Assembly (NCBI GenBank): GCA_030704615.1
Contig: CM060732.1
Location: 71,300,001 to 71,364,000, forward strand
Length of the DNA: 64,000 nucleotides
Direction of reading: 5' to 3'
Source of the DNA: Takakia lepidozioides
Taxonomy: Eukaryota > Plantae > Bryophyta
The notes under the pieces are model-generated. The model saw nothing but the letters and a program-made list of their open reading frames with translations. It searched no databases and was not told the DNA's origin. The translations under genes and the position numbers were made by a program. Every line of letters starts with the position of its first letter. Within the stretch, counting starts at the first letter, position 1. This document shows positions 5,201-40,339 of the stretch, piece after piece.

Positions 5201-5975
5201 GGTCTGTTTTGGGAGATAGTGCGGGTTTTGCGCCACTTGCAGCTTCATCAAGCTGTATCTCCAGCATACATCTTGGAGAATGTACCACTGATGGGCAATT
5301 CTCGGGCCAGGGTGATGGCCAGTGTGCATCAAGTCCGGTCGTGGCTTGGGTCAGCAGTGTTGCTAGATGCAGCTACAGTGGGGTCACGGGCTCATCGTCC
5401 CCGGCTATGGTGGACTAACTTGATGCCACCCGCACTGCTCAAGCATGCATTTGATGGGGTGCAGCGACCAGCATACCTCACAGTGGATAGCATTTTGGAC
5501 ACAATGAGGCAGTCTTAGCGTGTGAGACACGATGACCGTTCGCCTTTGGCAGTGGTCAACAAGGTGGGTCAACCACGAGTAGCACTACCTACACTGCTCA
5601 GCTACCCAGGATCGCATGCTTTCCGAGATAGTGGACCTGGCCTCCTATGGGATGCTCAATTGCAGCAGTTAGTGGAGCGTAATGCTGACGAGCGTGAGCG
5701 GGCAATGGGTTTTAGCACTAGTACCACGGCGGTGCTATCTCTTTCTGAGGCATCACGTCGTCAGGTGTTGGGGCAAGCAATGGATCTCAATTGTTTGACC
5801 TGGATTATCAGCTTGGCTATGGCTGAGCAACGCAAAGTGCGGAGTACACTTCCCTCGCTGGTCTCTCTGCCTATCGAGACGGTACAGGCAGTGAGTGGGG
5901 GCGAGCATGTGAGGACCACGGGGTGCAAGCATCCACGGCACACGTGGGAGGTGCTCGAGGTTCAGAGGGAGCTGG
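2237..5975 (+). mobile_element. Truncated copy of the methyltransferase-carrying Ty3/Gypsy family (partial gag, protease, C5-MTase)
   Basis: Collinear with ~23626-27090. Gag 'MAWKGLFQHLEGPPMDDYHEFRRG', two zinc-knuckle remnants (~3018-3150), aspartic protease 'LRVLLDSGAQPLML' (~4091-4132), MTase motifs 4876-5790. No terminal repeats; frameshifts and stops. Confidence 0.9.
4850..5830 (+). pseudogene. DNMT3-like C5 cytosine methyltransferase domain (retroelement-borne, copy 1)
   Basis: Motif I ICLLDLFGGISTG, IV IDLVVAGWPCQ (PC at 5144-5149), VI YILENV, VIII SRAHRPRLWWTNL, IX ERERAMGF, X RRQVLGQAMD. Split by a frameshift near 5065 and a stop at 5516. Confidence 0.9.
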
Positions 5976-8900
5976 GCCACATTGGCCATTTTTTGTTGAC
6001 CAGTGAGAATCAAAGATGGTTTTTTGTCGTTTTTCTTTCTGCTTCTCAGCTGCTAGGTTTGCCTTTAAACGCCGGTCTCTTGTTTTCTGCCTCGCTTTTG
6101 TCTCCTTTTCCTGCTTTTTCTTCTCTCGTTCATTTTCAGCCTCCGCTCTCAGTAGGGTTTTTTTCTCCAATGTTGTTTTGTACTCCGTAGATGTCATGAC
6201 AATCGAGTTAGCATAGTCCACTAGAGGCTTTTTCCCTCGTGTTGGCTTTGTTGGGAATTGAGGGAGGGCCAGTAAACTTGCAAAGTTTTCTGGACTTTGT
6301 TCCTGTGCGCATTGCATATCTGTTGCCTGTGAAAGAGTCTCATCAAACATCTCGGCCATGAATATGTCTGCTAATTTTTGTGCCAACATAGAAGTGATGA
6401 GTTGGATCTGGATTTGCACCACACTCAGCTTCAAATCCTGATTGAGGTGTACTGCCTTCTGCTTCTCCAATATCTATAGGTTGACCTTGGCTGAGAGAAG
6501 GTGTTGCCTCCCCAATTGATGTAGTCTCAACTGGCTGATTCTGAGTTGTTGTGGGACTAGTGCTTTCAGTTAAGAATAGAAGAGCATTAACTCCGCTATC
6601 CAAATCAGCTTCATCATCACTGACTCTCTCATCGTGGATGTCCACACCAGGTTCTTCTCTAGATGTTGCCGCCTCAACTGTGCTGAATTGTTCAGAAGGT
6701 CCAGTCTGATCATCCATGGCTGCAAAATTCAATGGCCGTATTCCTGTTTTTCGAAATCCAGCTACAATATTATCTTTGGTAAGTGCTTCTCTCAAAGCTC
6801 CATCAACCCAAGTAGCTAATGTTTTCTTATCGGGTTCCATATAATTTCTTTCTAGCATTTGAGCATCCCGAATTTTGCGAAAGCAAGTTTTGAATGGCTT
6901 GAAACAACTTACATGAAGGGGCTGTAAAGCATGAGAGGTATGAGCTGGAAGCGTAATAATGTCTAGCCCGATGTTCATAGCATAATCAATAGCCTCAATG
7001 GTAACGTGACTACCATGTCCATCGAGTATCAGTAAATGTCGATTGGTTGGTGAGACCCCCCCTGGAATATTGTTTTGTAGGAATATTAGCCATGCTTTGA
7101 ATAATTCTGCTGTCATCCAGCCTTTGTTTTGCATTGCCATGCATGCCCCTTTCTCACAATCTGCAATGTAATCTGCCATCATCCGTTTTCCCTTGAATAT
7201 AAAATATCCTGGAATTCTCTCCCCTGCTGCATTGACGCAAGCAAGAACAGTTAGCCATTCTCTTGACTTAGGAATTGTGCTGTACACATAGTGAGAGCCT
7301 TTTTTGGCAATCACCCTTGCTCTCGGAGGTGCGACCAGCCATGCATCTTGTTTCATCACAATTCCATATGTGAGAAGGTGAGTATTTTTGCTTCTCATAC
7401 AACAACTGCAAGTTAGAGTAGAAACCCTTGCAATGTTCGTCAGTGAGGGCTTTGGCCCTTGCCATTTCCAACCCTTCAGCTATCCTGATTGAAAGCTATG
7501 GATGTCTCTTTTTGAATCAATGCCACCAAGAATTTCCTGGGATACCATCAGAAAATGGTGTGACTCTTGTTTGAGTTAATTCCGCCACCTTCAATTTCAG
7601 TTGTTGAACTGTAACTGAGTGGCCAATGTCTTGTATCTTCAATATCGAGGCCACCACCATAGCCTCCTCTTCCTTTGAGAGTACTGGTGCAGCCCCTAAT
7701 TTCCGGTGTCTAGTCTTATCTGTCAAATGATCTTTCACAGATGAGAAAGGAATTTTCCAATGTTGTGCAGCCTTGCGTATGCTCATGTTTCCACTCTCAA
7801 TTGCATCCATTGCCTCTTCCAATGCCTGATCTGTCCATAGTCCTCTTTTCTTGGCATCTTTGCCTCTAGCCCTCTTTTGTGGTTGAAGAAGTGTTGTTGG
7901 TTCAGGCCTACGATGTCCTTTATTGCGTTGCCTTGTTGACCTAGGGACTACTGGAGAGCAAAGGGTGGATCTTCTTCCAACCATGATGTTCAGATCTCAG
8001 CCTATTTGCAGCCTATTCAACCAAGTAAGTAAACCACTAATTCTATTTCCTAGAGTATGGAATGTCAATCAGCTTGACTGGCCATTCCAGTCCTTGATCT
8101 TTGTACCATTGTGCCAAATTAGTCCCTCTAGGTTTCTCTCCTATATAAGGTGCTCCAACAGAGGTGGGAGATCTATGACGTACCCAACTCTCTACAAACT
8201 CATACAAATCTTTGTGGTTTTGCTGAGCATAGGTCTTGTATAGTGGTTCTCCTCCTATAAACTCGTGGAACAACTTGAACTTATTCCAATCAAGATCATC
8301 TTCCTCACCATCCTTTCTAATCCCTTTAGGCAGCCACCTTCTCACTGATTTAGTTCTTCTTCCAAGACGGACTTTTTTCAGAGTGTGTGCCCACTTGTAA
8401 TAGTCATATTGTGCAAAGTGTCTCTTGACTAATATATCTACTGGGTTGTCTCCTTGTACTTGCAGGATTGCAGAAGATGAACTACAACCTGTCATTTGTA
8501 GCACATGGCTGTAGCTAGAAACAACAGATTGTACCCTTAAACTAAACTAAATAGTGTTAGTGAGAAAAGACACTATACTAAGCTGAACCTGAAGTACATA
8601 GAGATGCACAAATAGAGCTTGAAGTAGGATAGAAAGAGAATAAGAGTGTCAAAGCATTGCAGAAAAAGTAATTCTGCTTGAAGCACCAAAGGAAGAATGA
8701 GAGTGTCACCCTATTGCAGGGCAAACGAAGCACAAACAGAAAGAATGAAATGTTGAGAGCTTTGCAAAATGATGGTTTGAGTAGGGGCGCCAAAACAGGT
8801 CACTGTCTAATAACTGCTTTCATCCGTGTGAAAGTTCATCCTCCAGCGTTACATGTGGATTATATAATTGTATCACAATGACTTTACATCTGCGCACTTC

Positions 8901-19900: not shown

Positions 19901-20371
19901 CACCAAGTTGTATCTTGTACTTAATATATAATGCATCTAACTTATGTTTACAATCATGTCTTCTAAAGTGCGTAACTTATACCAAGGAACGGACAATCAC
20001 AGTGTGCGGCCGGTGGTGTGAACATTGAATCTTCCACACTTTGGACTCTTGATTTTTTATATTATCGTAGCAAAATGTGTCAACATTAGTTATAAACAAG
20101 GCAATGGTTCTAGCTCATGAACTAGGTGTATTTCATTATTTGCAATATTCTACAGCTTTGCATTTTGGTAGCTTCTATTTGTTGATTGTCAAATCTCATA
20201 TGTTATGGTTGGTTGTCTATTAATTATTGGAAGTCTCATTTCCAAGCTGTCAACTAGTATAGTGATGAGGCCCAAGGAGAATACCCTAATTAAATTGATT
20301 TTGGGAATACAAATATAGGATGAGGACATTAGTAGGTCCATCAATGAATTTCAATGGATACTTGAACCATT

Positions 20372-20719
20372 TGTCATGGTTTTGTTTGTGATTAGTTAGA
20401 AATAGTTATTTCTAACTAATTAGGACATTATACATTTATATTTGTATTTTGTTGGCATTGGGACTTCATTTGGTTCCATGTGCCAAGTGAGGTGGCGAAC
20501 CTCACTTGGGACGTGGGGAGGTTATCTCCATGTGAGACGTAGGCAGGCTCGTCTTCTTCTAGTCGAGCCTCCCGAGGCCTCTCTCGCCACCATAGCTCTA
20601 GTACTTGAGATGGAGAGTGGGTGAGGTCTGTATGGTGAAGTCCTTTAGCAAATGTGCCATTGGCTTGACTTATATAACGTGATAGAGTGGTTTCTTCTCT
20701 TTTCACCATTTCCGTATCA
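20372..20719 (+). repeat. Terminal repeat A1 (LTR-like, TG...CA)
   Basis: Matches 30787-31134 with about 7 substitutions in 348 bp (counted by eye). Confidence 0.95.
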
Positions 20720-20731
20720 CTAGAAGAAGAC
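20720..20731 (+). promoter_or_regulatory. Putative self-priming primer-binding site
   Basis: CTAGAAGAAGAC immediately follows A1 and is the exact reverse complement of GTCTTCTTCTAG inside A (20551-20562; 30966-30977). No TGG-type tRNA PBS is present. Confidence 0.7.
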
Positions 20732-21595
20732 CTGCTTACATCTATGAGTGCAAGGTGTTAGCATAGTTAACACTTGTGTGTGGAAGAGAGTTTGATAGAT
20801 AGCTCTTAAGTTACAAGGTGTTGCAGGGTTTGCAAGAAGAAAGCATTGTGGTGTTTATGTACAAGAGGAGGTCTTCAAGGAGAGCCCCATTGAAAAGTTT
20901 GAGAGCTTGTGAAAAAACTCTTGTTCTGCAAGTGTTGCAGGGTTTGAGGACTTCAAGAAGAGCTCGGGTGTTAAGGAAGCAAGCGGTGCATGTGTGGAAC
21001 ATGGTTTCAGCTTGTGGGAGTCTTCAACTTCAAGCTTAGAAGAGCTATGAGTGGAGGTAGACATCTGATTTCTCTTTGGGGCAGAATAGTGTATTTGTAG
21101 AGCATGCTTTGAGTTGGGGTTTCAATCCCAAGCTTGGGAAGAGCATGTCTATGGAAGTGGCAAGTGCAGGGCTGGATTATGAGCTCTAAGAGGTGCACTA
21201 TGGCCATGGAAGGAAGCACTATGAGTGCATGCGATGGCTAAAAGATGGTATGTCATAGAAAGCTCAATAACTTGTTCTACACTTGTTTCAATAAGTTCTA
21301 TAGAGAAAGAGAGCTTGTTGTGTGGCAAATAGCTTGCTCAGGGAGTTAGAGGCACTCTTGGTGGTCTATTGATGCTCAAGAAACCAAGAACAACACCTCT
21401 GGTTGCTCCATAGAAGCCATAGCTCGTTGCAGCAATCGCAGAGGCAAAGCGGCGCAAACCCTTGGAAACGCTTGGAAACGTGTGAGAACGCTTGGGAACT
21501 CCTTGCGAACTCGTGGGAACGCATAGGAACGCATGGGAACATTGCCCTAGAGTTGGGAGCACCACCATTGTCCAATCGGATGAACTATTGAGCCA

Positions 21596-21910
21596 ATGGA
21601 TAAAAATCGGCGCTCCTGGATGAGAATCGGTTGCAGTGGATGAAACTACGCCAGAGGATGAAATCTTGTCAGCGGATGAACTATCGCGCTATCGGATGAA
21701 AAAGACGGATGAAACTGCGTCAGCGGATGAAATCGTGGCAGCGGATGAACTATCGTGCCATGGATGAAAAATCACGGCGACGGATGAAACTGCGCCAGCG
21801 GATGAAATATAGGACCAGTGGATGAAATATCGCACCGACGGATGAAGTATCGGACCTGCGGATGAGAAATCGCGGTTTTTGATGAAATTTGGTCAGTGAC
21901 GGATGAAAAA
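21596..21910 (+). repeat. Degenerate ~20-bp tandem array centred on GGATGAA in the element 5' region
   Basis: About 15 recurrences of (c/t)ggatgaa at roughly 20-bp spacing. Confidence 0.8.
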
Positions 21911-21929
21911 TCGACTGACTATGGATATT

Positions 21930-22520
21930 TTTGGAGCCTTCTGGGGCCTGCTTTGAGGACTATTTGGGTCTATTGAGGCCAATATCTTGCAGGTATTGGG
22001 GCCTGCTTGAGGACTGTTTGGGGTCTATTGAGGCCAATATTTTACAGATATTGGGGCTTGCTTGAGGACTATTTGGAGTCTATTGAAGCCAATATCTTGC
22101 AGGTTTGTGGAGCCTGCTTGGGGCTGTTTGAAGGACTATTTGAGGTCCTTCGAGGCCAATGTTTTGCAGGCCTGTGGAGCCTTGTGAGGGCTGGTTGGAG
22201 GACGATTGGAGGTCCTTGGAGGCCCATATTGGGCGGATTTATGAAACTTTCTAAGAGCTCTTTGGGGGACTATTGGAGGTCCTTGGAGGCCAATACTTGG
22301 CAGATTTGAGGAGCTTCTTAAGGGCTGTTGGGGACTATTGGAGGTTTTGGAGGCCAATACTTGGCAGATTTGAGGAGCTTCTGTTGGAGGACGGTCCTTG
22401 GAGGCCAATACTTGGCAGATTTGAGGAGCTTCTTGAGGGCTGTTTGGAGGACTCTTGGAGGCCATATTGGGCAGGCTTGTGGAGCCATTGTGAGGGCTGG
22501 TTGGAGACCTTGGAGGCCAC
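21930..22520 (+). repeat. Degenerate ~50-65-bp tandem array in the element 5' region
   Basis: Recurring gaggccaata(t/c)ttg(g)cag...gagc(c/t)t...gaggactatttgg units. Confidence 0.8.
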
Positions 22521-23294
22521 TAATTGGCGGGCGCCTAGGGCCTTTGGTGGACTGTTTAGAGTCCAAGTTTGCAAACTTCTTGAACCTCGGTGGGTCTATG
22601 TGAGGGGCTGATTGAGGGCAGATTTCAGAAGTTCATGGCAATAATTTGAGGACTCTTGAGAGTTATTTGAGAGGTTCTTTAAGGATAGTCTTATCTATTG
22701 CTTGAGCAAGAGTGAGTGTGAAGATATGGGGAGTAATGGGATGAGAGCATTCTGGGCTTAGAGATTGCTTTAGCTTCTCTTCTCTATAGTCTTCCATCAT
22801 TCTTGTAGGCCAAAGCTTTTCCGTAAGTGGAGGCAGAGCTAGTTTGGATAGAGACGTGACAATTTTGCAGGTTTATTGAAGCCGCAAGGAGATCGATTGA
22901 TTTAAGCTGTGGGAGGTGTTGTTGTTTGAGTTTCCTGTGTTTGGATCCTCCTCCCACACATGCATGCTTGACTGTGCGCCATGCTAGTTTGGTTTGGGCG
23001 CTTGCTTTTATAGGTGGTTGTGCCGGAAATATTGTGGCCGGCCAATCCTAGAGTGCTGTCGGTGGTGAGGCTGGGGTGATGACCAATAGACCATCATTGT
23101 TTCTCTTATGGTGAGGCTGGGTTGATGACCAGCAGACCATAGGAGTACCTGCGGTGGATGCAGGTGCAGGTGCAGGTTCATAATATGAACCTAGTATTCC
23201 AAACCATAAGCCGCAACATGTTCTCTACCCGGTTACCTTGTGGAAAGGGGGATTAGAGACAGGTTGATAGCCGGTTTGAGTGTGAGTTTTCATC

Positions 23295-24594
23295 ATGGAG
23301 GTGCCACCAGTTGCTGAGGAGAGTGCCGGTACGAGCACCAGCGATACTAGTGGGTATACAAGACGAGGTGTGCGGTTTAGGCCACCTTCACCTTCAGTGT
23401 CTTCTGAGGAAGGTTCAGACTCAGAGTTAGGAGGATTCTCGCCGAGGGTGCAAGCATTTCCGTGCCATTGTTGTGGGATACGATGGAGGAAATGTATGGA
23501 GCTACCAAGGGGCCACGTCGGTACTCGGGAGCTGTGGGCACCATCGAGCTTGATGATTTCATACAGGAGTTTGATAGTTGGTGTGATTTGCAGCAGATGC
23601 GCAATCCACAACTGTTTACGCCTTTTATGGCGTGGAAGGGGCTGTTTCAGCACCTTGAGGGGCCGCCTATGGATGACTACCATGAGTTTAGGCGGGGAAA
23701 TGAGGTGGAGATTGAGGAGTGGCGACAATATTGGTCACCTGACTATGTCTCCATCACTAGAGGCACAAGGGCAGCGGCGATACCAGCAGCTACACCAACA
23801 TCCCCAACTGCAAGCACTAGTAGTGGGACAAGTAAAGATGGAGCTGGGAAATCCACTCAAGCTCCTGCTGTAGCACCAGCACTCGTGCCTGCCTTTAACC
23901 CAGTTGTGGAGTTCTTCGAGGAGTTGAGGAGAAACTACCAGGGGATAAGGACGGAGAAATTGCGGAGCTTGCAAGAGTTCCAGCGCAAGCCTACTGAGAG
24001 TTTGATGGAGGTTTACACGCACATGAGGCGATTGATAAATGTAACCCAAGGGGTTACGGAAGCTCAAGCAGTCCAATTCTGGTATGGGATATTGGACAAG
24101 GAGCTGAGGAGAAGGGTGCGGGATGCAACTCTCCTACAAGTGGACCAACCCACCTTAGCAAACGTGTTTTTGCTGGCAGAGCGGATAGAGCTCAATATGG
24201 TGGAGGAGCGAGTGTCATGGTGGGGTTTGGTAAGGAGACACAACGAAGTGGGGCTCCTAGCCAACAACAACCACTACCCCAACGTGCTCAAGGCAACAAG
24301 GGGGCTCAGGCGAAGCCCAGGGAAGGACAGAGAGGATCTCAATTGCAGAGGTCATTTCCTTCATTCTCAGGCCAACAACAGTCGGGTGTGACATGTTGGG
24401 ATTGTGGAGGACCCCATGTTAAGAGAGATTGCCCGGAGAGAGGCAAAGGGCCGACACAGGCACAGCCTACACAACTACAGTGTGGGCATTGTGGCAAGTA
24501 TGGGCATGAAGAGGCCCATTGTTATGACTTGCATCTTGAGCTACGGCCAGGCAGTTCCAAGGGAACAATGGTGGCCGAGGACGAGGCAATGTAG
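23295..24594 (+). pseudogene. Gag with two CCHC zinc knuckles
   Basis: Retrotransposon-gag-like core (LRSLQEFQRKPTESLMEVYTHMRRL), CWDCGGPHVKRDC and CGHCGKYGHEEAHC. Frameshifts near 23460 and 24215. Confidence 0.85.
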
Positions 24595-25199
24595 TCCAGA
24601 GAGGTAGAGGAGGTAGAGGTCGTGGTGGAGGTCGTAACCAAAACCAATGAGCACAAGGTCAAGGTCAAGGTCAAGGTCATGACCAAGACATGGTGGATAG
24701 GCTTGCCCAGCTAGAGCAACGTCTTGCTGCCATGGCCACTACTAATGTGGCGTATTTTGATCCACAAAAGGGGGAAGCAAGTTGACAGACAAGGCTTCCA
24801 CAGTCTTTCACATTGGCTGAGACAGTGCCAACTATGCCATCGATGGTACCCGCTCGCCCAAGTGTGTCAGAGGTAGAGCCACGAGTACCAGTGGGGAGAG
24901 TTGGTGTGGCTCGGGAAATGCCAATGGGTGGTGCTGCAAAGCAGGGTGCACCAGTACATTGTTGGGGGCGGCTACGGTTTGCCAAGCTCCATTGTTTTCT
25001 GCGATGACCATTGCAATGCCGAGGATTCGGCAGCTGCTGTGTTCAGACTAGCAGCTAGACTCTGTGAGAGTGGTGATGCATCGGCACTATCTGCGGGGAT
25101 AGCGGATAATGTGCAGTGCATGGATGTCATGGACTCAAGGGTGAAGACAACCACAGCTGCACCATGGCAAGCGGCAGCTGCAAGGTTGCAGGAGTTGTC

Positions 25200-25640
25200 A
25201 GCTAGACCAGCCATTGAGCATAGTATGGTGACTTCTGGGGTAGTCCTGGTGGACAATCATGATGGTGTGTTTCAGTTGGGTGGCCCAGCCGGGAGGAGGT
25301 ATAGGCCACTACGGGTCTTGTTGGACTCGGGAGCACAGCCATTGATGTTGGGAAGAGCAACAATTGTAGGCTTAGGCCTTACAGAGGCAGATTTGGAGCC
25401 TTGCCTTTTCCAAATTCAAACATCTTTGGGTGGTTCAGAGAAGACACGAGGGATTACATGTCATGAGCTCTTCATTCGATTGCAGCCAGATCATCCTACA
25501 GATGGCTCAGTCATGAGCGCTAAAGCCATTGTTACGGACGCGATGTCCATGAGCTTGTTGGTGGGCTGTGTTATACCCCATGGACTTTACTTTGGACTTT
25601 GGGGAGGAAACGGCGTCCTATAGGCCGGAATGGCAGTCAG
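25200..25640 (+). pseudogene. Retropepsin-type aspartic protease
   Basis: Active-site motif LRVLLDSGAQ (~25310-25340), followed by a degenerate 'DVLVG'-type motif. Confidence 0.85.
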
Positions 25641-26009
25641 GAGATGGCCGACGTGCACTGCTCCCAGTGCGGTTTATTGGGAATGCAGCGGTGGATCATA
25701 GGAACATGATGCCCACATTGGCTGCATTCTCAAGGGTGGTGGCTTGGGGTGGTGAGCTCTTGGAGAGCAATAGCCATGCAAATGATAGGCTATCACCTGA
25801 TGAGGACAAACAATTGGCATACAAGGCTGATTTGCTTCCTCATGTGCCTATGCATATTCCACTGTGGGGTACGGTTGGGAATTTGCATCGAGTAGCAGGC
25901 GAGTGTGTGCACCAAGCATGGCAGGAGGCCTTTCCATTGGTGAGTGAGGGGAGTTCAGTGACATCACCTGGACCTCCTAAGTTAGCTCCTTTGGACACGG
26001 TGCCCATTA

Positions 26010-26990
26010 CCTGGCAACCACCTGACTCAGGGATTTGTTTGCTAGACCTGTTTGGAGGCATGAGCACTGGGCTTGCAGGAGTGTTGCAAGCAGGGATTAA
26101 AGTAGGCAAGTACTTGTATGTGGAGAAGGATGAGATAGCTTGGCGTATTTCTATGCGCCACATCGCCTTGCTCGCACACCAGTATCCTGAGTTGTTGTCT
26201 CTCTCAGCAATTCAAGGGTATCAAAAGGCCTTACCAGCAGACATTACCTTGCTGGGGGGCGGACGATTTGGACCGGCATGGTTCCATTGACTTGGTGATA
26301 GCTGGATGGCCTTGCCAATGACACTCTTCCGCAGGTCATGGGAATGGCTTGCATGATGCACAATCGCATTTGTTTTGGGAGATATTGCGAGTGTTGCGGG
26401 ACTTGTAGACGAGGCAAATGCAACCTCTAGGCTACATCTTGGAGAATGTTCCTCTTATGGGGGATTCTTGGGCCAGGGTAATGGCCAGTGTGCATAAGGT
26501 GCGGTCTTGGATTGGATCGGCGGTGCTATTGGATGCAGCAGCGGTGGGATCACGCACACATCGACCTCGATTATGGTGGACCAATCTTGCACCACCAGAG
26601 CTGCTCAAGAGAGCATATGATTCCATTCAACAGCCACCCAATCTCATAGTTGAGGGCATTTTGGACCAAGGGAGACAACCACAGAGGGTGCGACATGATG
26701 ACCGTCCACCTCTGGCGGTGGTCAATCGAGTAGGGCAGCCACGTTCGGCTTTGCCTACGCTCATGAGCTTTCCCTTGTCTCATGCTTTTCGAGACAATGG
26801 TCCTGGATTGATTTGGGATAATGTGCTACAACAATTGGTGGAGCCCAATGCGGATGAGCGAGAGCGGGCAATGGGTTTTACCACGGGCACTACCGATGTG
26901 CCAACTCTGTCAGAGGTATCACGCCGCCAAGTGTTGGGTCAAGCAATGGATCTAAATTGCTTGACATGGATAATTGGCTTGTGCATGGCT
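26010..26990 (+). pseudogene. DNMT3-like C5 cytosine methyltransferase domain (retroelement-borne, copy 2)
   Basis: I: ICLLDLFGGMSTG; II: KYLYVE; IV: IDLVIAGWPCQ (PC 26310-26315, then a premature TGA); VI: YILENV; VIII: SRTHRPRLWWTNL; IX: ERERAMGFTTGTTD; X: SRRQVLGQAMD. Confidence 0.92.
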
Positions 26991-27469
26991 GAGCAACGGA
27001 GATTGCAAGCATTGGTGGCTACTTCGGCACTCCTATTAGATAGTGGCAGTGAGTGGGGGCGAGCATAGGATCGTGGGTTGCAAACACCCATGGTAGATGT
27101 GGGATGATATACGCAAAGAGAGAGTCATTGGATCTCTCAAGCAGCAGTATGAGGAGTGGGGAGAGCCATGGACTGAGGATCAGTTGGAGGCCAAGGTGGC
27201 CAAGGTTTTTGAAGAGGTTGAGAATGTTTCTTGCTCAGAGGATGTTCTCAAGGTGGCTATGGCGGAGCAAGTGAAGGCTACGCCACAGTCAGATTGGGCG
27301 GACAAGGCCCAAGAGGTTGTTATCTAGCAACCGAAGGATTTGTCTCCTACCTCCAAGCCTGGTGTACCCAAGGTTGCAGTCACTGAGGACAATTGGGAAC
27401 CAACTGTTGGACCTACAGACACCAGAGGAGAGAGACGGAGGATCCAGCGATTTCTAAGGGCTTATAGGA

Positions 27470-28805
27470 ATTGTTTTGCCTTCGGATTGAAGGATTTGGG
27501 GAGTTTGAAGGGTCAGGAGATTCGTATTGATTTGGCAAGTGACACGCCAATCTTTCGAAGGCCCTACCAGTATAGTGACATGGAGAGGTCATTGATCCAA
27601 TCACGGACTATGGAGTTGTTTGAAGCTGGATTGGTGGAGTATGCCTCGGCAACGGTGATACCAGCTAAGAAGGATATCTATGGCAATTGGACAGAGAAGA
27701 AAGAAGATGTGTGTGGACTATCGTCCTGTGAACCGTCAGACTAAGTCCGATAGATATGCCATGCCAACTCCAGAGGAGATCTTTGATGCCATGGGCATGC
27801 AAAGGTGTTTAGCACATTGGACTTGCGATTCGGTTACCACCAGTTGCCAATCAAAGAGGCTGACAAGCAAAAGACGACATTTTTGGGGGATTGATCAACA
27901 TGGGAAGGATTGTTTGTACCAATGGCAGTTCTTACCGTTTGGGTTGAAGAATGCTCCTGCAAAGTTTCAGAGGGTCATGGATAGAATTCTCGCGGGGCTA
28001 GACTTCGCCCGGTGCTATATTGATGACATCATCCTCTTTAGTGCTACGGTTGAGGAGCATGAGAGACACCTTCAGGTGGTGTTTGAGCGCTTGAGAGCAC
28101 ACGGGTTGAAACTGCACCCCGGAAAGTGCAAGTTCTTCCACAATCAGATTGAGTATCTGGGCCACATGATATACCCTGGAAGATTGGGTGTTCAACAGAC
28201 AAAAGTGGAGGCCATTGCATGCATTCCACGCCCCATGGATGTGAGCAGAGTTCGTGCTTTCATGGGATTGACAAACTACTATCGACGGTTTGTCAAGGGA
28301 TTTAGCAGCATTGCAAAGGCTCTTACCAAGTTGACCAAGGTGGTCAGGAGTGGCAGGGAGAAGGAGCAGGAGGAAGCCTTTGAGGAACTCAAGGCTCGAT
28401 TGACTTCTGCACCTATTCTGAGGCGGCCTATTCGGGGGCGGCCTTTCTAGCTACATACGGATTGGAGTATGTTGGGGATTGGAGCAGTGCTCACACAAGT
28501 GGATGATGAGGGAAGAGAGTTTGTAGTGGCATATGCTAGCCGCTCGAACAATGATGCCGAGGTGAAGTATAGTTCCTATGAAGGGGAGTGTCTAACTGCG
28601 GTATGGGCAATGGCACATTTCAGATGCTACCTCTATGGCAATCTCTTCACCCTTGTCACAGATCACCAGCCATTGAAGTGGTTGATGGAGTCAGACAAGC
28701 TTACAGGGAAGCTTGCACGGTAGGCACTTATGCTTCAAGAGTACGACTTCCAGGTGGTGCATCGAGCCGGTATTGTCAATCAGGATGCAGAGGGATTGAG
28801 TCGTA
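27470..28805 (+). pseudogene. Reverse transcriptase and RNase H (Ty3/Gypsy type)
   Basis: MCVDYRPVN, LPFGLKNAP, YIDDII, FMGLTNYYRRFV. RNase H: TDWSMLGIGAVL, YASR, VTDHQPLKWL. Several stops and frameshifts. Confidence 0.95.
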
Positions 28806-29189
28806 ATCCATGCACGAGCGAGCATGATGATACTGGAGCTCGATGGCATGGTGAGACGGATGAGGAGATGGTGCCAGGATGGCATGCATCGGCCTTTTTG
28901 TACATTCTAGCAATGGGAGCTCAAGCTGGTCCATCCCATGCGATTGATCATGTAGATAGCGTGCATGATGATCTAGAGACTAGTGAGGAGTTTGGTGGTG
29001 CTAAAGAGATGCAGCAGTGTTGGCATACTTTCGTACCGGAGAGACAGCAGTCAGTGTGACTGCTAAGGAGAGGGATCGGGTCCTATAACGAGCCAAGAGG
29101 TTCAAGTGGGAGGGGACTCACCTACTCCGGGTATGGGAGGATGGACGAGTGAGGATTGTGCCTCATCCAACACAACAAGCGCGATTGGT

Positions 29190-30436
29190 ACGCCATACCC
29201 ATGAGGAGTTGGGACACTTTGGGGGTACGACGCACTCATAGTTTGCTGCAAGGGCAGTATTGGTGGCGCGGCATGCACACGGATGTGCAACACTTAGTGG
29301 CAAGGTGCATGGTGTGTGATAGAGTGCGAGCTTCTTTCCACGCCCCTACTCCACAATTGCATCATTTACCCATTATGGGTTTGGGCTATCGTTGGAGTCT
29401 TGACTTTGCAGGCCCATTGCCATTGACGATTCGCCCAAACAAGTATGTGCTGGTGATGGTGGAACACTTCTCCAAATGGATTGAACTGGTGGCATTGCTT
29501 GACAAGGCAAGTGAGGGGGCTACGTATGCATTCTTAAATCGAGTGCTTAGCCATTTTGGTGCTCCAGCCGAGGTACTCACGGACCAGGGGAGAAAGGTCT
29601 TGGGGGAGTTTCAGGCTTTGTGTAAGCAAGCCTTGATAGATCACTGCACTACTTCTCGGGATCGTCCTGAGGCTGATGGCTTGGCGCAGAGAGTTGTTCA
29701 GACAGTCAAGAGAGGTTTGCGCAAGTTTGGTTTGCTGAATGTAGGAGATTGGGACCTTCAACTGCCTTAGCTAGCTATGGGCTATAGGTTCAGCAAACAA
29801 GCTTCACCTGCCTCCTTCTCACCTTACTTTCTTCTCTTCGGCCGAGAGCCGGATTTGTCTGCATCTACTCACAGGGAGGCTGCAATAGTTCTCAACCTTG
29901 ATGATCCGGATGTGTGGACACAAGCATGTGCCCAATGGGCAGAGTTGTTCAAGAGAGTCATGCCTATGGCTTTTGAGAACCTTGCTATTGCCCAACACCG
30001 AGACACATTGAGGTACGTCACTATACGTGGAGGGGGATATCGGCCAAGTGTTCGGCGTTTCCACCCTGGGGACTATGTGTATCTGCAGCAGATAGCACCT
30101 ACGACCTTGGATGTCACCGCAGGACGTGTGATTCTAAGGGTCAGGGAGGTGTTGCCTTTAGGAGTGTTGATTCTGGAGGGTCGAGACGGCATGGTATGGA
30201 AGGACCATGTGCGCAATTGTGCGCCATGTCACCTTCCACATGTGGATAGGAGGATAGATCCTAACCTTGCAGTGGTACCTGCAGGGTTGCGTTGCATGCT
30301 ATTGTGGCATGCTGGTGGCACCACAACCATGTTGGTGCGTGACAAATGCTCAAGGGGGTGGCACATGGGATGCTTGACACCGCCACTTGAGGAGGTTCTT
30401 ATCGGAGAATGGTTATGTCCACGATGCCTTGGATAG
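29190..30436 (+). pseudogene. DDE integrase with C-terminal PHD finger
   Basis: HHCC (HEELGHF...CMVC); core WSLDFAGP, LTDQG, A[Q]RVVQTVK (catalytic E mutated). PHD 30293-30427: CML..MLV[R]DKCSRGWHMGCLTPPLEEVLIGEWLCPRC. Confidence 0.9.
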
Positions 30437-30684
30437 AGGTAGTGGGCATGACAATGGTGAGGCGGACAAGTGACCCAAGGTCTAGCTAGTGGGGCTTCAA
30501 TGCCATGGATATTCAACTGAAGATCATGGATTGTATGAAGGCGACTAACGATGGGGCTACGTTTGCACCCGACCTCTTGATCTATCGACTTCAGGTGTTG
30601 GGACTTGTGCAATTGAAGACCAATCGATGATCTTATTGGGGTGGATACTTGCAAGCCATCCGGTGTTAGAGGGACCTAATCACC

Positions 30685-30699
30685 AGCTAGGGGGGCGAT
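30685..30699 (+). promoter_or_regulatory. Polypurine-tract-like sequence
   Basis: agctaGGGGGGcgat directly precedes the TG start of repeat B1. Confidence 0.6.
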
Positions 30700-31220
30700 T
30701 GTGGCGTGGCTTTCTAGGACTATATGCTAGGAAGTGTGGTTGGACAACGATGTATGTTGTGGCACGATACTTAGGTGCACGACAGCTGTCATGGTTTTGT
30801 TTGTGATTAGTTAGAAATAGTTATTTCTAACTAATTAGGACATTATACATTTATATTTGTATTTTGTTGGCATTGGGACTTCATTTGGTTCCATGTGCCA
30901 AGTGAGGTGGCAAACCTCACTTGGGACGTGGGGAGGTTATCTCCACGTGAGACGTAGGCAGTCTCGTCTTCTTCTAGTCGAGCCTCCCGAGGCCTCTCTC
31001 GCCGCCATAGCTCTAGTACTTGAGATGGAGAGTGGGTGAGGTTTGTATGGTGAAGTCCTTTAGCAAATGTGCCATTGGCTTGACTTATATAACGTGATAG
31101 AGTGGTTTCTCATCTTTTCACCATTTCCGTATCATTGTGGCGTGGCTTTCTAGGACTATATGCTAGGAAGTGTGGTTGGACAACGATGTATGTTGTGGCA
31201 CGATGTTTGGGTGCACGACA
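30700..31220 (+). repeat. Right-end repeat block B1 (30700-30784)-gc-A2 (30787-31134)-t-B2 (31136-31220)
   Basis: B1 and B2 differ at 3 of 85 positions. Each of B1, A2 and B2 begins TG and ends CA. Confidence 0.95.
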
Positions 31221-33937
31221 CCTTAAATGCCCGCGTAGTTTGACTTTCCAAAAATATTTTATTACCTACCCTGAAAAATGTGTAATTTCCACATTTATTT
31301 ACTATTTTGAAAATACGACCACACAGAATGTGCCACCTGATCCTACACCTACTACTCGAATTTGGGGCCAATTAGACCTCTCATCTTCCAAAACCCCAAT
31401 GTTGAGGATGGGCCAATTTTTGTTTAGGTGTATATATAAGTAAGTAAAAAATTGGTTTTTTGAATATTTGGATACCGGATTCGATGCAAATAAGGCCCAT
31501 GGTCCAAATGTTTCATCTACACGATGTGTTGGATATAATTGTGAAGAAATTATCCCAATCGGCAAGAATTGAGCCCGTGGTGATTGGTCAAAGCAGATGG
31601 GTCAAATTTTGTCATGTGACGGTTGGTTTCTGTGTTTTATTGCACCATCTTCAAAAACAAATTTCTCTCTCACACGCCTTTTCCTTTCTCTCTTTCCAAA
31701 TTGGGCAATCCTTGGGAATCAAAATTAATTCAGAAATAAAAAATATAGGATGAGAACAGAGACCCATTCAATGGTAACCGTAAACACCCACATTGCTTAA
31801 CTTTCCAAATGCATCTGTCTAGCAGTATGTATATGGACACGGAGAGGCGGATATATACCGCCCATGTGTGCACCCCTACTTGGTACGGGGACTACACTAA
31901 TCTAACTAATACGTATTTCCTTACTAATTAATATAAATTACTTATTTTGAAGAGTGTTACAACATTCAACCATTACAAAAGTGCTAGTATCTGCTACTGC
32001 AATACTCCCACAAAGCATGTGCATTGCCTAATCTGATATGTAGCAATGCGCCCAACATCTACCAAAATGGGTGCAGCTTAGAAGCGACCAACTAACCAAC
32101 TATCCAAATCACGGCGATGCATTAGCACCAACACAACATAATACTTGACATACCATAAGCATAAGCCCACAAATCCATCTGCATTAGCCCCAATTTGAAG
32201 CGACTCTCTATTCCACTTAGCGACTCTTTCATTAACCCTTTATCCAAGTGATTCTCTAACCAATTCCCACCTCTAGTAAGACCGAGTCTTCAAAACCAAC
32301 CAAAGCATGTGGACATTAACACGTAATATGCAAGTTCTTGTATTCAAACATAGACACATAACCACAATGCTTCATCATCTTTCATACTAGCAGTCGCATC
32401 TTTGCAGCATCATACAAGCAATTAGGCAAAGTTCCCTCTAATTCACACTCACATGAATCACACGACATTGTGGATATGCTTCACAAAAGCAGGCCCTTAA
32501 GCAGAGGGGTACATCTCCACACATGGTGTAGCTAAAAGTACCTCTATCTTGTACAATATGAGACACACTTCTTCTTTTTAATGCTCTTGAGGTAGAAATA
32601 AACTGCTCCAAGATTTGATACAGTACAAGCACCTCACATCACTGTTGTCCAAGACCTTGATCACCCACCTTTCAATTAAACCATTAGCAACTTCTAGATT
32701 GACGAGGAGGTCAGGATGTGGAATCCGGCCATTTGACACTACAACAGATCCCGGCTTTAACGTCTGCCACATTTGCCCAATCGTAGCATATATGTCTACA
32801 ATATGCAAGGGGGCAGTCCTGGTTGCCATTTGTGACCACCAGAAGTCGTATATGCTACCTTGTACCTCTGCCACGTCAGGATCTGCGGTCAAACACATTT
32901 GACCAAATAGGGGAAGATGGTAGATACGACTAGGAGTCATGGCCAAAACTGCAATAGGGTGACGTGGGCATGGGAATGTATGACTGCCAGTATTCACTAC
33001 TGCACGTGGCGATTGCCGGTTGCCCAAGGAGTGTCTACGTGGACGATGCAAACATAAATGGATGAAACAGATGTAGGATGTGATTGCAAATGACGGCATG
33101 TCAACATATCATTGCTTGTGGGCACTAAGCCACACCCTGTGAATGAAGGAATGAATGGATGAATGAATGATTAGGATGACTTAGGATGAGTGAACTAAGA
33201 TGAATTAGGATGAATGAACTAGGATGAATTAGGATGAATGTGCTTGAATTTAGGGTTGCTAGGTCGCAATGTTAAGTATGAGGATAATACTATTAAACTA
33301 ATATTTCACTGACCCAGCAGATTAACAGTAAACTAATCGACTACTGGTTAAGGTTAGTGAAATAAAACAATTGTATTATCTCAACGAATGATACACAAAC
33401 GTCTTGCTGGCAACTATTGGATGAACGTATCAAACATAACTTTTGTGCACTGGATGAACATATGAACGAATGATACAACAAACGCCTTGTTGGCAACTAT
33501 TGGATGAACATAGGAACAAATAATAATGCAAACGCCGAGCTGGCAGTATTGGATCAACTGACAGTGAAACTCATTTAAAGATTCATTTTGGGAAATGGAT
33601 GAAATTAAAAATGGCCAAAAATGGAAAAACAAATGAATGGATGGATATATTGATGGAAAACCCAAAATCCATCCATTTATCGCTACATTCATCCATCCAG
33701 TCGTGAGTAGAGGACTTAGCGTTTTTTTTGTCTCCCATGCCATCTGTTTGTTTTCTTTGTGTCGAGTTTGATCATGAGAGACGACAAACAGGATGGAGCT
33801 GTGTTTGCTTTCTTATAGTGTCGAGTCTGATCATGAGAGACGTCGATCAGGGCAGAGCTATTGTTTTAGTGTCAAGTCTGATTATGAGAGACTACGAGCG
33901 GAGCTGGTGGGATAGGGGGCGGACATGGACTCAAACC

Positions 33938-35039: not shown

Positions 35040-35812
35040 TGGGCAAAGAGGTGCATGGGGATATCATCAAAGCTGGGATTGTACCAAACGTCATTATGAA
35101 CACTGCCCTGGCAGCTCTGGAAATGGGGAAAGAGGTCCATGGCGACATCTTCAAAGCTAGAATTGTACCAGATTTCATTTTGAACAACACCCTGGTGGAC
35201 ATGTTTGCAAAATGTGGGTGCATCTAGGATGCAAAGGGAGTGTTCAACACTATGGCTGAACAAGATGTGGCGTCGTGCAAGCCTGGCAGCCCTAGGGAAG
35301 GGCAAAGAGGTGCATGGGGATATCGTCAAAGCTGGAAAGTACCAAATGTCATTCTAAACACTGCCCTGGCAGCTCTGGAAATGGGGAAAGAGGTCCATGG
35401 CGACATCTTTAGAGCTGGAATTGTACCAGATTTCATTTTGAACAACACCCTGGTGGACATGTTTGCAAAATGTGGGTGCATCTAGGATGCAAAGGGAGTG
35501 TTCGACACTATGGCTGAACAAGACGTGGCGTCGTGCAAGCCTGGCAGCCCTAGAGAAGGGCAAAGAGGTGCATGGGGATATCGTCAAAGCTGGAAAATAC
35601 CAAATGTCATTCTAAACACTGCCCTTGCAGCTGTGGAAATAGGGAAAGAGATCCATGGCGACATCTTCAGAGCTGGAATTGTACCAACTGTCACTCTGAA
35701 CAATACCCTAGTGGACATGTATGCAAAATGCGGGTGCATCGAGGATGCAAAAGGAATGTTTGACACTATGGCTGAACAAGACGTGGGTCGTGCAAGCCCT
35801 AGAGAAGGGCAC
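35040..35812 (+). repeat. PPR-derived 258-bp tandem array, left part (~3 units)
   Basis: Near-identical ORFs start at 35240 and 35498 (258 bp apart). Units encode deleted L/S PPR motifs, some with a TAG stop. Confidence 0.9.
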
Positions 35813-38372
35813 CGTACAGGCATTCAATTGCAGAAAATGAAGAATTAGAAAGGCAGTTGAATGACTTGTTGGAAAAGGGGTATATACGTCCAAGTAAATC
35901 CCCTTGGGGTGCCCCTGTAAAGTTTAAGAAGAAGAAAGACGGAACTTTGAGACTGTGTGTGGACTATAGATGGTTGAATAAGGTCACCATCAAGAATAAG
36001 TTCCCTTTACCTCGTGTGGACGATTTGTTTAACTATCTATATGGGAGTCAAGTTTTTTCAAAACTTGATCTTCGGTCTGGATATCATCAGATACGGATCA
36101 AGAATTCTGATATACCAAAGACAGGATTTCGATCTCGTTTTGGTCATTATGAATTCTTGGTGATGCCATTTGGGCTCACAAATGCTCCAGCAACATTTAC
36201 TTATCTGATGAACTCTCTGTTCCAGAAATATTTGGGGAAGATGGTTTTAGTCTACATCGATGATATACTAATATACTCGAAGTCTGAGGAAGAACATGAA
36301 CTGCATTTACGCTTGGTTTTAGACATACTAAGAGAGAACCACCTGTTTGCTAAGAGAAGCAAGTGTGAGTTCTTTGTAGACCACATGGATTACTTGGGAT
36401 TTTGTATTTCCAAAGATGGAATTTCAATTGATCCTAAGAAAGTCCAGACAGTGGTTGAATGGCCTAAACCAAGTGATAAGACTGAGGTCAGGAGCTTTAT
36501 TGGGTTTGCTAGCTTCCTACGGAAGTTTGTTAGAGAGTCAGATCCTTTACAAGTGGTATCAGAGCTGGTTTGCGATCGGGCAGAACAGATTGTGGATTTC
36601 GCAATTTCCAGAAGTAGTGTAATCGTGTGAATGAGCCAGATCTCGTTCGGCTCTGTGAGCACGCAACCTGGTGACGACGATCAAGATAGTGAAATGGCTG
36701 GAGATCGTGAGCGCTCAGATGCGGCCAGTCTGCACCGAGCTTCAGATCGCGAACATGGAAGTCAGTTATTTTCCCAGCAGCAAATGGAGGCCTTAGGTAC
36801 TTTGATTTGATCTGAGATACAGAAGTTGGCCCCTGCACAAACTCAAACTGACAAGCGATCTAGGGAGCTGCCTGTGAGTGAGCCACTGAATGAGGACGAA
36901 TCTGAGGCTGACTCCCATGAGGCCAAGATGAAAAGAAGCAAGGATGTCACCAGGGAGATCAGAAGATTGGTGAAGTTGCCAGAATTCTATGGTAAGCCAT
37001 CTGTCAAGCCTGAAGAAATATTGTCTTTCTTGGATACCTTAGAAAAGTTCTTTGAGGACGATTATTCAGAGGAAGCCAAGATACAGACTACAGCTCCGTG
37101 ATGCTGCCAAGCTATGGTGGTCGCGTCAGAAGCAGGAACGCCGTGAACACAAGAAACCATCTGTGGATAGTTGGGCTATGTTTAAGACACTGTTCTTAGC
37201 CCATTACCTACCTGGCGACTATGCACAAAGATGAAAGTTGAATGTACGGTTGAGCCAAAAGCCTGGGGTTAGAATATTATTACCCGGCGAAGAATGGACT
37301 AAATTATCGTGCGTTGTTTACTCTCTATGTTTGATGAGATTTCTGCTCGAGAGTCGGAACCCTGGGCCGACGAAATTATAGTATACAGTGTCGTGCAAAG
37401 AATGTTTGCTTGGCATATCACAAGAAGTTCCACTTCACATATTGAGGTGGCCAATTCCGCCTACGGACCGGCCATAATCGACCGCCTTGATTCCGGCAAT
37501 GACCAGTCTATATGTATCAATCCCAGTTATGGGTACTGTTAGGTGCCTTGAACAAAGATCGAGACCTGTCGACCAGTTTGGCGAAGCAAGTGACTGCTAG
37601 AAGACCGCCGAACTGACAGTTGCAGGTCGAATGGAGCAGGCTCGCGTTCACGAACAGATCTACGATTAGGGAATTAAAAAAGTGGGCTTGGAGATGGCAA
37701 GAGTGGAGAAGAGAAAAGAATGATGGTGTACAGACCTCTAGAGCAGATCTGTATTGACAGGAAACTAGCGTAGCATGGCGTGGTGGCTGGGCGGACCGGA
37801 CGTAGCCGGTGCTGTGCTTTTTGGTGAGCAGAAAAAGAGGTCGTGAGAAGAAGAAAAAGGATCGATCTGCACTGGTCTATAGTGATAGAATAAGTTGATG
37901 CACGGTGTGGTGGAGGGGCGGACTGGACATCGTAGTCCAGTACTGTGCATAGATAGAATGGCATGAGATGAGTACATAGGTTGACAGGGAGATCTTTTGA
38001 ACAAGGAATCAGGCCAGAGTAGGAGTGACGATCACTTGATCGATCTGTGAATTTGTAAATGAGGGAAGTGGAATAAGAATAGGGCCTTGGCTGGAATTCA
38101 GATATAGATGAGAGTCCGGTTGAAACAAAATCCCGAGCAATCAGTTTTCCTTGGAGTTTTGGTAAATTCCCTGTGAACAGCAAACCAAGCAAAGCGCCTG
38201 AAATTTTGTCATAGTTGGACAAAGAAAAGAGAGTCAGATCCTTTACAAGAGTAGCTTCTGTCTCTGGGTAATGCAACCACTTAATCAAATGTTCTTTCCA
38301 AGAACGGTTGCACAGGTGCTTTACTCGCGTTTCTAGAATCTTTTCGGGTTCAGCCATCAGCTGACCATCATG
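35813..38372. mobile_element. Scrambled chromovirus (Ty3/Gypsy) fragments: RT(+), LTR end-PBS-gag(+), probable LTR(+), chromodomain(-)
   Basis: RT 35857-36530 (YIDDILIYS). PBS TGGTATCAGAGC 36554-36565. Gag 36826-37234. The 22-bp LTR end agagagtcagatcctttacaag occurs at 36532 and 38228. Minus-strand chromodomain PEKILETR...EHLIKWLHYPETEAT at ~38250-38355. Confidence 0.85.
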
Positions 38373-39350
38373 CATGGGGATATCGTCAAAGCTGGAAAAT
38401 ACCAAATGTCATTCTAAACACTGCCCTTGCATCTCTGGAAATAGGGAAAGAGATCCATGGCGACATCTTCAGAGCTGGAATTGTACCAACTGTCACTCTG
38501 AACAATACCCTAGTGGACATGTATGCAAAATGCGGGTGCATCGAGGATGCAAAGGGAATGTTTGACACTATGGCTGAACAAGACGTGGCGTCGTGCAAGC
38601 CTGGCAGCCCTAGAGAAGGGCAAAGAGGTGCATGGGGATATCGTCAAAGCTGGAAAATACCAAATGTCATTCTAAACACTGCCCTTGCATCTCTGGAAAT
38701 AGGGAAAGAGATCCATGGCGACATCTTCAGAGCTGGAATTGTACCAGATTTCATTTTGAACAACACCCTGGTGGACATGTTTGCAAAATGTGGGTGCATC
38801 TAGGATGCAAAGGGAGTGTTCAACACTATGGCTGAACAAGATGTGGCGTCGTGCAAGCCTGGCAGCCCTAGGGAAGGGCAAAGAGGTGCATGGGGATATC
38901 GTCAAAGCTGGAAAGTACCAAATGTCATTCTAAACACTGCCCTGGCAGCTCTGGAAATGGGGAAAGAGGTCCATGGCGACATCTTTAGAGCTGGAATTGT
39001 ACCAGATTTCATTTTGAACAACACCCTGGTGGACATGTTTGCAAAATGTGGGTGCATCTAGGATGCAAAGGGAGTGTTCGACACTATGGCTGAACAAGAC
39101 GTGGCGTCGTGCAAGCCTGGCAGCCCTAGAGAAGGGCAAAGAGGTGCATGGGGATATCGTCAAAGCTGGAAAATACCAAATGTCATTCTAAACACTGCCC
39201 TTGCAGCTGTGGAAATAGGGAAAGAGATCCATGGCGACATCTTCAGAGCTGGAATTGTACCAACTGTCACTCTGAACAATACCCTAGTGGACATGTATGC
39301 AAAATGCGGGTGCATCGAGGATGCAAAGGGAATGTTTGACACTATGGCTG
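38371..39350 (+). repeat. PPR-derived 258-bp tandem array, right part (~4 units)
   Basis: ORFs at 38816 and 39074 are 258 bp apart and repeat the 35240 and 35498 ORFs (offset 3576). Confidence 0.9.
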
Positions 39351-40339
39351 ATTTTGCAGGAGTCTAGTTAGTTACCAACACAAGTGTGACAGCAAAGGAT
39401 GACAATCTGGCTGTTTGTGTGAGAGAGATGGAATAGAGGAAGAGGAGATGGATAGAGGAAGGTGAGAGATTTGTAAGTTTCTTTTGACGATGATACAAGG
39501 GTTCAACTCAAACAGATATAAGCTCGTTGGGTGGATCTGTGGTGGTTAGGAGTGACTTTGACAAGTTACTGCCGATGTGGCAGCAAGAAAGTATCCAAAA
39601 ATAGATAACATAGATGAGGAGAAGCTCGTTGGTGAATCTCTGGTGGTTTTGGAGTGATTTTGACATGTTACTGTAGGCAGGGTTAGGGCGACAGTGTCAG
39701 CTGCTAGTTGCAGCAAGGCTGAAGATGTATTCACGATTTGTACACAGGCATGGATAGTTGAAGGAGTGCAGGGATAGATTGTGGGTCCAGATTCATCTAA
39801 GAGGCCCGGATTTAAAGCTCCAGATTACCTATGATTCCTTGTGGAGGATAGCTATAAGAAACAGATGGTCAACTGGAAGCTGCCGCAACAACGACACAAT
39901 GGATAAAATCAGGCACTGCTATTGAAGGCACCTTCTTCAACACATTTCACCCTGTTTTTCCTTCTTATCAGAATTGGCCCTATATTTCCATGTTGAATTC
40001 TGCAAGTTAGCTGGTTGAGTGAATCTTGTTTGGAATGACTCTGACATGATACTGCCAATGTGACAACAGGAAAGTATCCAAAAACAGGTAACAGATATGA
40101 GGAGAAGCTGTGGGATAAATATTCTGTTGACCCCAGTAAATGGTGGGACAACTGAGGCAAAAAGGTGAATGCCTGTCAGATTACAGAGAGTAGCAGATGC
40201 AATTGACCATAGGAACTAGTATGATTAGTTGAGTTGGGTGCAATTACTCTCCCTTTCCTCTCTGCTTCTGTTTGTTATTCAAAGGTAGGATCCCTGCCCT
40301 GAGTTTATATTAAATCAATCTGGTGAGCAACTGTTGTGC

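Follow-up and report, generated by a model that had tools for sequence, protein, structure and literature searches.

A Ty3/gypsy retrotransposon clade with split direct repeats that probably integrates through an internal palindrome

Our analysis of a 64,000-nucleotide stretch of the Takakia lepidozioides genome (GenBank assembly GCA_030704615.1, contig CM060732.1, positions 71,300,001 to 71,364,000 of the forward strand; hereafter the window) supports a model whereby the DDE integrase of a clade of Ty3/gypsy retrotransposons uses as its attachment (att) site a palindrome inside the long terminal repeat (LTR) and not the ends made by reverse transcriptase (RT). The element in question, at 20372–31220 of the window, is a dead, decayed member of a self-priming Ty3/gypsy family, and it carries split direct repeats in the order A1, coding region, polypurine tract (PPT), B1-gc-A2-B2. 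We put the probability that the integrase uses the internal palindrome, and does so family-wide, at roughly 85%. With less assurance, we favor a course in which the RT ends are joined first, likely as a 2-LTR circle, and the integrase then opens the palindrome that lies before the primer-binding site (PBS).

Results

Repeat layout and outer ends of the Takakia element

A1 and A2 are 348 bp each with 7 differences (98.0% identity) and B1 and B2 are 86 bp each with 3 differences, a comparison that bears out the order A1-internal-PPT-B1-gc-A2-B2 proposed in an earlier, sequence-only reading of this DNA. The B1–A2 boundary reads CACGACA-gc-TGTCATG, with a perfect core, GACAGCTGTC, at 30781–30790 and nowhere else in the window, and the outer ends of the element, TGTCATG at the left and CACGACA at the right, are the halves of this palindrome without the central gc, as the same reading had recognized. 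Perfect 10-bp palindromes are common by themselves (62 in the window); what lies above chance is that the palindrome sits where B meets A in other families as well, not the palindrome as such. Two details of the earlier reading had to be revised. The t that it placed between A2 and B2 as a spacer is the first base of B, present also at 30699 after the PPT, so that A2 and B2 abut exactly, end to end. Its caveat that an exact target-site duplication (TSD) is missing (ccatt versus cctta) came from a 5-bp comparison and falls away at 4 bp, where the flanks, catt and cctt, differ by one mismatch. A also carries, in its U3-like part, two hairpin-type inverted repeats at 20391–20420 (30 bp, 93%) and 20476–20516 (41 bp, 78%), both present in A2 as well.

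The same ends recur across families

Metagenome contigs were scanned for relatives, and of 526 confirmed stretches the 80 best were analysed as loci, with repeats of one insertion merged. They represent at least three further LTR families, whose integrase-PHD regions are 48–72% identical to that of the window element and whose A repeats cannot be aligned with each other; the window's B is weakly like the B of one of them, the L019 family. The end PPT-B-gc-A-B-flank was found in 15 distinct insertions (23 loci) and the end PPT-B-flank in another 15 (19 loci), with L048 as one more of the latter. The other 38 of the 80 loci were counted in neither 3'-end class because they are too short, are displaced (L045), were added later (L048), have a deleted or interrupted LTR (L013, L023/24, L034, L047, L049), a shortened B2 (L025) or a fold-back (L008/9), or stand on contigs that stop inside A (L036, L042, L046, L075, L080); L026, described below, was also left out. 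When the end structures of relatives are tabulated, as the sequence-only reading had suggested, all those counted are of A..BAB or A..B form, and no ordinary end was seen among the 80 loci: neither BA..BA nor A..A occurred, and in no case did plain flank follow a complete A. Each of the 10 distinct 5' ends, which include that of the window, begins TGTCA(T/A)G with no B in front. No relative was found in two scans of viral contigs.

Copies of the window's own family have the same boundaries. In four runs of one sample, the contigs that diverge from the window at position 31220 number 30, 23, 27 and 29, and their continuations are mixed (agreement 0.40–0.48), in part B1-gc-A and in part unique flanks, while the loose contig ends at the end of A, among the matches listed for these runs, continue only into the PBS. 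A diverged contig of the same sample runs through the A–B joint into another flank, and in a contig of another study the element starts exactly at the first base of A, next to a different flank. To the earlier question of a family-wide trait or a single event, the answer is thus family-wide, given 15 other B-A-B insertions in three more families and the own-family copies. An ordinary LTR element altered by a one-off rearrangement or by misassembly would accommodate the one TSD mismatch of the window copy and the finding that its whole B1-A2-B2 block is spanned by no single piece among the contigs listed; this explanation is refuted, and left with practically no probability, by the recurrence of the layout across families and by contigs from the four runs (all of one sample, which may be the source sample) that bridge B2 into the window's own flank with 0 differences. 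The suspicion that B2 is an assembly artefact can likewise be dropped.

Two loci add observations of their own. In L047, a second clade member in opposite orientation interrupts A2 at about base 56 (400–5200 bases after the PHD match). In L046, on the minus strand about 2300–2600 bases before the end of the PHD match, an A-B stretch stands with no internal region in view; it is possibly a solo A-B, with an ambiguous left end.

Palindrome conservation and target-site duplications

In the central 14 bp of 22 junctions, all differences from the window are C>T or G>A (36 changes), a conservation that is partly by construction since the junctions were chosen by fuzzy match to the window motif (at most 5 mismatches in 16), although their placement was fixed independently, by the repeat boundaries. 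The palindrome is kept across families whose integrase identity falls to 48% and whose A repeats are non-alignable. Seven two-ended copies have a 4-bp TSD, which is exact in three (L002, L019, L076), matches at 3/4 bases in the window and L012, and at 2/4 in L050 and L067; among mismatched pairs of flanks, taken as a control, 4/294 were exact and 30/294 had at least 3 matching bases. TSD lengths of 5 and 6 bp gave a poorer fit and were rejected.

Predicted RT termini and the A–B joint

The 12 bases after A1, the predicted PBS, are a 12/12 complement of 20551–20562 inside A, as good a match being found in 0/300 shuffles, and the predicted helix between them (z −3.74) was equalled in 0/200 shuffles. 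The complement holds at 11–12 of 12 in 6/10 distinct 5' ends. Self-priming of the Tf1 type is the model for a PBS that is complementary to the element's own RNA. In three families the self-primer lies within a short hairpin. Because the PBS abuts A1 and the PPT abuts B1, the standard scheme puts the cDNA as B-gc-A-internal-B-gc-A, and the proposal that the true LTR is B+A thereby holds up in the form B+gc+A. We infer that insertions carry this cDNA in circularly permuted form, in which A2–B2 would represent the joined RT ends and the outer ends an opened B-gc-A that has lost gc. The RT-defined termini themselves share no att motif and no TG..CA (TTGTGG/TATCA, GTTGTGG/TTTTCA and GTTTGG/CTTTTG), and in one family the end of A lacks CA.

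The A–B joint, judged by eye, is exact in 12 of the 16 callable cases. In L016 and L031, PPT bases are retained and the last base of A is lost, with 17 nt of filler in L016 as well; L061 has one extra base and the joint of L045 is ambiguous. L073 has a private 4-bp insertion common to B1 and B2. The L019 and L072 families show no fixed differences between B1 and B2, and the old L052 family only near-even splits of the kind typical of decay, so that B2, as far as the data go, is not inherited as a separate lineage. From these patterns the joint looks newly made in each cycle.

The fold-back end of L008/L009 consists of B-gc-A, the PBS and an inverted A (bases 1–180) that halts exactly at A's first base, followed by unique flank; it is best read as a plus strand that folded back via its PBS copy and was cut at the palindrome. 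Within the L019 family, A..B and A..BAB copies are of similar age (median distance 0.091 versus 0.080, p 0.31), which fits an origin of A-internal-B copies from 1-LTR circles or double cuts, and a tree of 16 ends of this family has no supported branch and is silent on the origin of the A..B forms.

Coding content and classification

Between the repeats lie, in order, gag, protease, a C5 cytosine methyltransferase (DNMT), RT, RNase H, a DDE integrase and a PHD finger, interrupted by stops and frame changes (Table 1). This order, an RT of Ty3 type, an integrase with an H2C2 finger, a PBS after the 5' repeat, a PPT before the 3' repeat and a short TSD are those of Ty3/gypsy elements; the outer ends are A.. 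and ..B and not two complete identical LTRs, which makes the element a variant and not a standard member. The closest solved structures to an intact relative, P0007, are of Ty3 RT (E 1e-91, 3e-71). The closest named proteins are from Marchantia and Calypogeia, at 71–75% over the integrase C-terminus and PHD finger and up to 70% in the DNMT; more distant ones come from Sphagnum, Klebsormidium and volvocine algae, among them the K. nitens protein P0105 (51%) in the integrase-PHD matches, and no K. nitens protein was among the 57 DNMT matches. Taken by itself, this order of similarity would make a liverwort or moss the likely host. In the window, as in the L019, L052, L072 and L026 families, the DNMT precedes RT. 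In the distantly related protein P0040 it lies between RNase H and integrase (residues 925–1021), versus before RT in the window's clade, which suggests that the domain was moved or was captured a second time.

The A..B-A-B layout is the hallmark of PAT/Ngaro elements (PMC4157794), and a tyrosine recombinase acting in trans could in principle integrate the element in their fashion, its own integrase being a passenger. The earlier statement that the element encodes a DDE integrase and no recombinase is confirmed: an rve domain is present, and no tyrosine-recombinase family was matched by 35 window open reading frames (ORFs; at least 80 aa) or by 40 ORFs of the near-complete relatives L019 and L036. 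The catalytic D, D and E are intact in 25/25 aligned relatives, the third carboxylate being missing in the decayed window copy; ends at CA/TG, 2 bp lost and a 4-bp TSD that varies in sequence are signatures of DDE enzymes, and PBS and PPT are of LTR-element type. Recombination in trans is thus largely refuted and we consider it very unlikely.

Table 1 Features of the element at 20372–31220 of the window and of its immediate flanks
Feature	Position	Strand	Basis or remark
Left TSD, catt, 4 bp	20368..20371	+	Sequence; 4-bp length taken from relatives
A1, 348 bp	20372..20719	+	Left end of insertion; begins with right att-palindrome half TGTCATG
Predicted self-primer (RNA 5' end), exact PBS complement	20551..20562	+	Helix, z −3.74; 12/12
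PBS, directly 3' of A1	20720..20731	+	Same letters after A in other copies
Degenerate tandem repeats, 55–69 bp units, 5' leader	21577..22545	+	
gag-like region, two frames	23483..24543	+	tblastn with Marchantia protein P0125; no Pfam hit
Aspartic protease region	25033..25602	+	Asp_protease_2 E 0.006, below Pfam cut-off; P0125
C5 cytosine methyltransferase (DNMT) domain, frame-broken	25970..27035	+	tblastn; relatives up to 70% identity carry PF00145
RT and RNase H, broken	27370..28807	+	RVT_1, RT_RNaseH
DDE integrase	29219..30320	+	H2C2 zinc finger, rve core, C-terminal part; has stops, lacks third carboxylate
PHD finger closing pol	30323..30427	+	PF00628 E 1.7e-06
PPT, AGGGGGGCGA, directly 5' of B1	30689..30698	+	Same tract before B in relatives
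B1, 86 bp	30699..30784	+	First part of RT-defined LTR
att palindrome CACGACA-gc-TGTCATG at B1–A2	30778..30793	.	Perfect core 30781–30790; putative integrase cut site
A2, 348 bp	30787..31134	+	
A2–B2 joint	31134..31135	+	Exact join of both predicted RT termini
B2, 86 bp	31135..31220	+	Right end of insertion; finishes with left att-palindrome half CACGACA
Right TSD, cctt	31221..31224	+	Sequence; relatives

Elsewhere in the window, an older fragment of the same clade at 2213–5989 comprises gag, protease and DNMT with 53–84% amino-acid identity to the main element, and lacks RT, integrase and recognizable A/B repeats. Another Ty3/gypsy RT, at 35794–36567 (within 35041–39351), is 30–36% identical to the window's family and has arrays of a 258-bp unit on both sides, with related units at about 34100, 40400 and 61600–62900. 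A region at about 6600–7800 on the minus strand is, judged by eye, presumably a degenerate fragment of a pogo/Tc1-like DDE transposase.

Discussion

In our model, the RNA would begin inside A1 and prime itself on the PBS, RT would produce a linear B-gc-A-internal-B-gc-A, and its two ends would be joined end to end. The integrase would then act on the palindrome that precedes the PBS, cutting each strand of GACA-gc-TGTC behind its CA with a stagger of 2 nt, and the two resulting ends, which would resemble 3'-processed retroviral ends, would be inserted with a 4-bp stagger. The product, A-internal-B-gc-A-B, would retain promoter, PBS, PPT and both R regions and would be able to cycle again, while A-internal-B copies would be dead-end by-products, either of a 1-LTR circle opened once or of ends taken from two palindromes. 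The traits behind the cutting step are observed ones, namely ends at CA/TG, the lost gc and a 4-bp TSD; taken together, such ends, two missing central bases and a TSD both short and variable point to a DDE integrase making a 2-nt staggered cut.

Integrases with such an activity are known. As a tetramer, HIV-1 integrase cleaves both strands of the palindromic 2-LTR junction behind CA (PMC1905944), and circles cut at the 2-LTR junction can integrate (PMC4372172), so that HIV-1 and foamy virus share with our model a DDE integrase that cuts a palindromic att junction into a product fit for integration. In these viruses the reaction is a sideline; it acts on a palindrome formed where the RT ends are joined, and the provirus has the normal form (PMC1905944, PMC4372172). 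In the window's clade, by contrast, the palindrome is encoded within the LTR itself, att site and RT-end joint are different places, and insertions are as a rule permuted. The opening of a circle at abutted ends by a DDE enzyme, and insertion of that circle, are also known from IS3/IS911 and IS30, although these are DNA transposons, whose transposase makes the junction from the element's own ends without copying by RT.

The same palindrome could also be cut without a free circle, if the integrase opened or trimmed linear cDNA, which we regard as possible though clearly the less probable course. In one version, the left palindrome would be cut, both new ends inserted, and the leftover RT ends then joined by the host in the chromosome. 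In the other, the right end would first gain another B-gc-A, by an end-to-end jump of RT or from joined plus-strand strong-stop DNA, and the outer palindromes would be paired. Either way the product would be identical, and the extension version predicts exactly the observed classes, A..B and A..BAB with no A-B-A..B; the pairing of ends from different palindromes in L008 and the about equal frequency of A..B and A..BAB, with their similar age in the L019 family, also sit well with linear cDNA. Repair after insertion, however, should scar the joint more often than the 4/16 seen, the extended linear form has left no direct sign in the material surveyed, and internal cleavage by HIV-1 integrase requires a symmetric junction and a tetramer (PMC1905944), which fits one palindrome supplying both ends.

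Several observations weigh against the circle, or against parts of the wider model. A 2-LTR circle has two palindromes, so that unbiased opening should yield A-B-A-internal-B as often as A-internal-B-A-B. This mirror product was not seen: 0/10 5' ends, and 0/5 two-ended PPT-B-flank copies, have B or A-B ahead of A, and the circle route therefore needs a bias for which it offers no explanation. The order of cutting and joining is not readable from the product, and L008, whose left end lies outside its contig, suggests ends from two different palindromes, for which no circle is needed. Thus, of the earlier proposal that the insert equals a 2-LTR circle opened at the B–A palindrome, the opening at B-gc-A and the joined RT ends stand, while the circle, like the cDNA and enzyme steps generally, is deduced from insertion products. 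In addition, L026 reads PPT-B-palindrome with no B2 within the 658 bp available, self-priming is without significance in 4/10 distinct 5' ends (the older ones), the TSDs of L050 and L067 match at two bases only, the junctions compared were selected by their likeness to the window motif, and some PPT-B-flank forms may stem from recombination between B1 and B2 or from short-read collapse.

It is tempting to speculate, although we think it improbable, that in this green-lineage clade the LTR circle is an obligate integration intermediate, the integrase acting as a restriction-like endonuclease for the internal palindrome and the element's own DNMT marking the other palindromes. The palindrome made early, behind the PPT, and the many chromosomal copies would be marked, and the last-made one, before the PBS, would be opened. 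If true, such marking would amount to restriction-modification logic inside a retrotransposon and would account for the absent A-B-A..B and the retention of the DNMT.

The layout has a precedent in KnitGypsy-Dnmt3 of Klebsormidium nitens, which according to a figure legend has repeats arranged as in DIRS elements and domains of Gypsy, the DIRS layout being given as A-coding-B-A-B (de Mendoza et al. 2018, PMC5890265). The window element shares both of its features, a Gypsy pol with a DNMT domain and DIRS-like repeats. KnitGypsy-Dnmt3 was reported from one alga, with no palindrome, TSD, priming mode or mechanism in the parts of the paper covered (PMC5890265), whereas the window's clade is high-copy and comprises several families of liverwort/moss-type plants; within the open-access literature, the name was found in PMC5890265 only. 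PAT, Ngaro and VIPER have the same A1..B1-A2-B2 split direct repeats, and their internal junction, too, corresponds to the outer ends put together (PMC4157794), but where PAT/Ngaro elements have a tyrosine recombinase ORF and no DDE integrase, the window element has no such recombinase, has DDE integrase, protease, PBS and PPT, loses 2 bp at the junction and has a 4-bp TSD. With Tf1/Sushi and plant Tcn1 elements it shares a PBS complementary to its own R region and not to a tRNA (12/12 in the window); these elements have ordinary LTR pairs, which the survey required, and chromodomains (PMC6317226), while the window element has permuted ends, a DNMT and, after the integrase, a PHD finger in place of the chromodomain. 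Gypsy-7a_cRei of Chlamydomonas reinhardtii, which is active in laboratory strains, is likewise a Gypsy element with a PHD finger, with 'LTR subparts' and a left LTR unequal to the right one, and no DNMT is listed for it in the parts of the account covered (PMC9940879); it may be an active relative of the window's clade.

What was already known is the layout, remarked once in print for KnitGypsy-Dnmt3 and, in the parts covered, left without explanation. New is that an internal att palindrome, self-priming, a 4-bp TSD and the classes of by-products together give a testable mechanism; no account of an integration route that explains the A..BAB Gypsy layout was found in the open-access literature, and subscription papers, theses or repeat-database notes may describe one. 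To our knowledge, it is the ends of a linear cDNA that are integrated in every well-studied LTR element and retrovirus, and the clade described here is a family-wide departure from that rule. A practical consequence is that LTR finders that require two terminal LTRs and a TSD, as in PMC6317226, will miss or clip A..BAB elements.

Split direct repeats, then, need no tyrosine recombinase, which opens a possible route between the LTR and PAT/Ngaro layouts. LTR circles are regarded as by-products; it is an old question whether their junction can serve as the normal att site. A natural, high-copy clade whose att site has moved off the RT termini makes this question testable in Marchantia, Klebsormidium and possibly Chlamydomonas.

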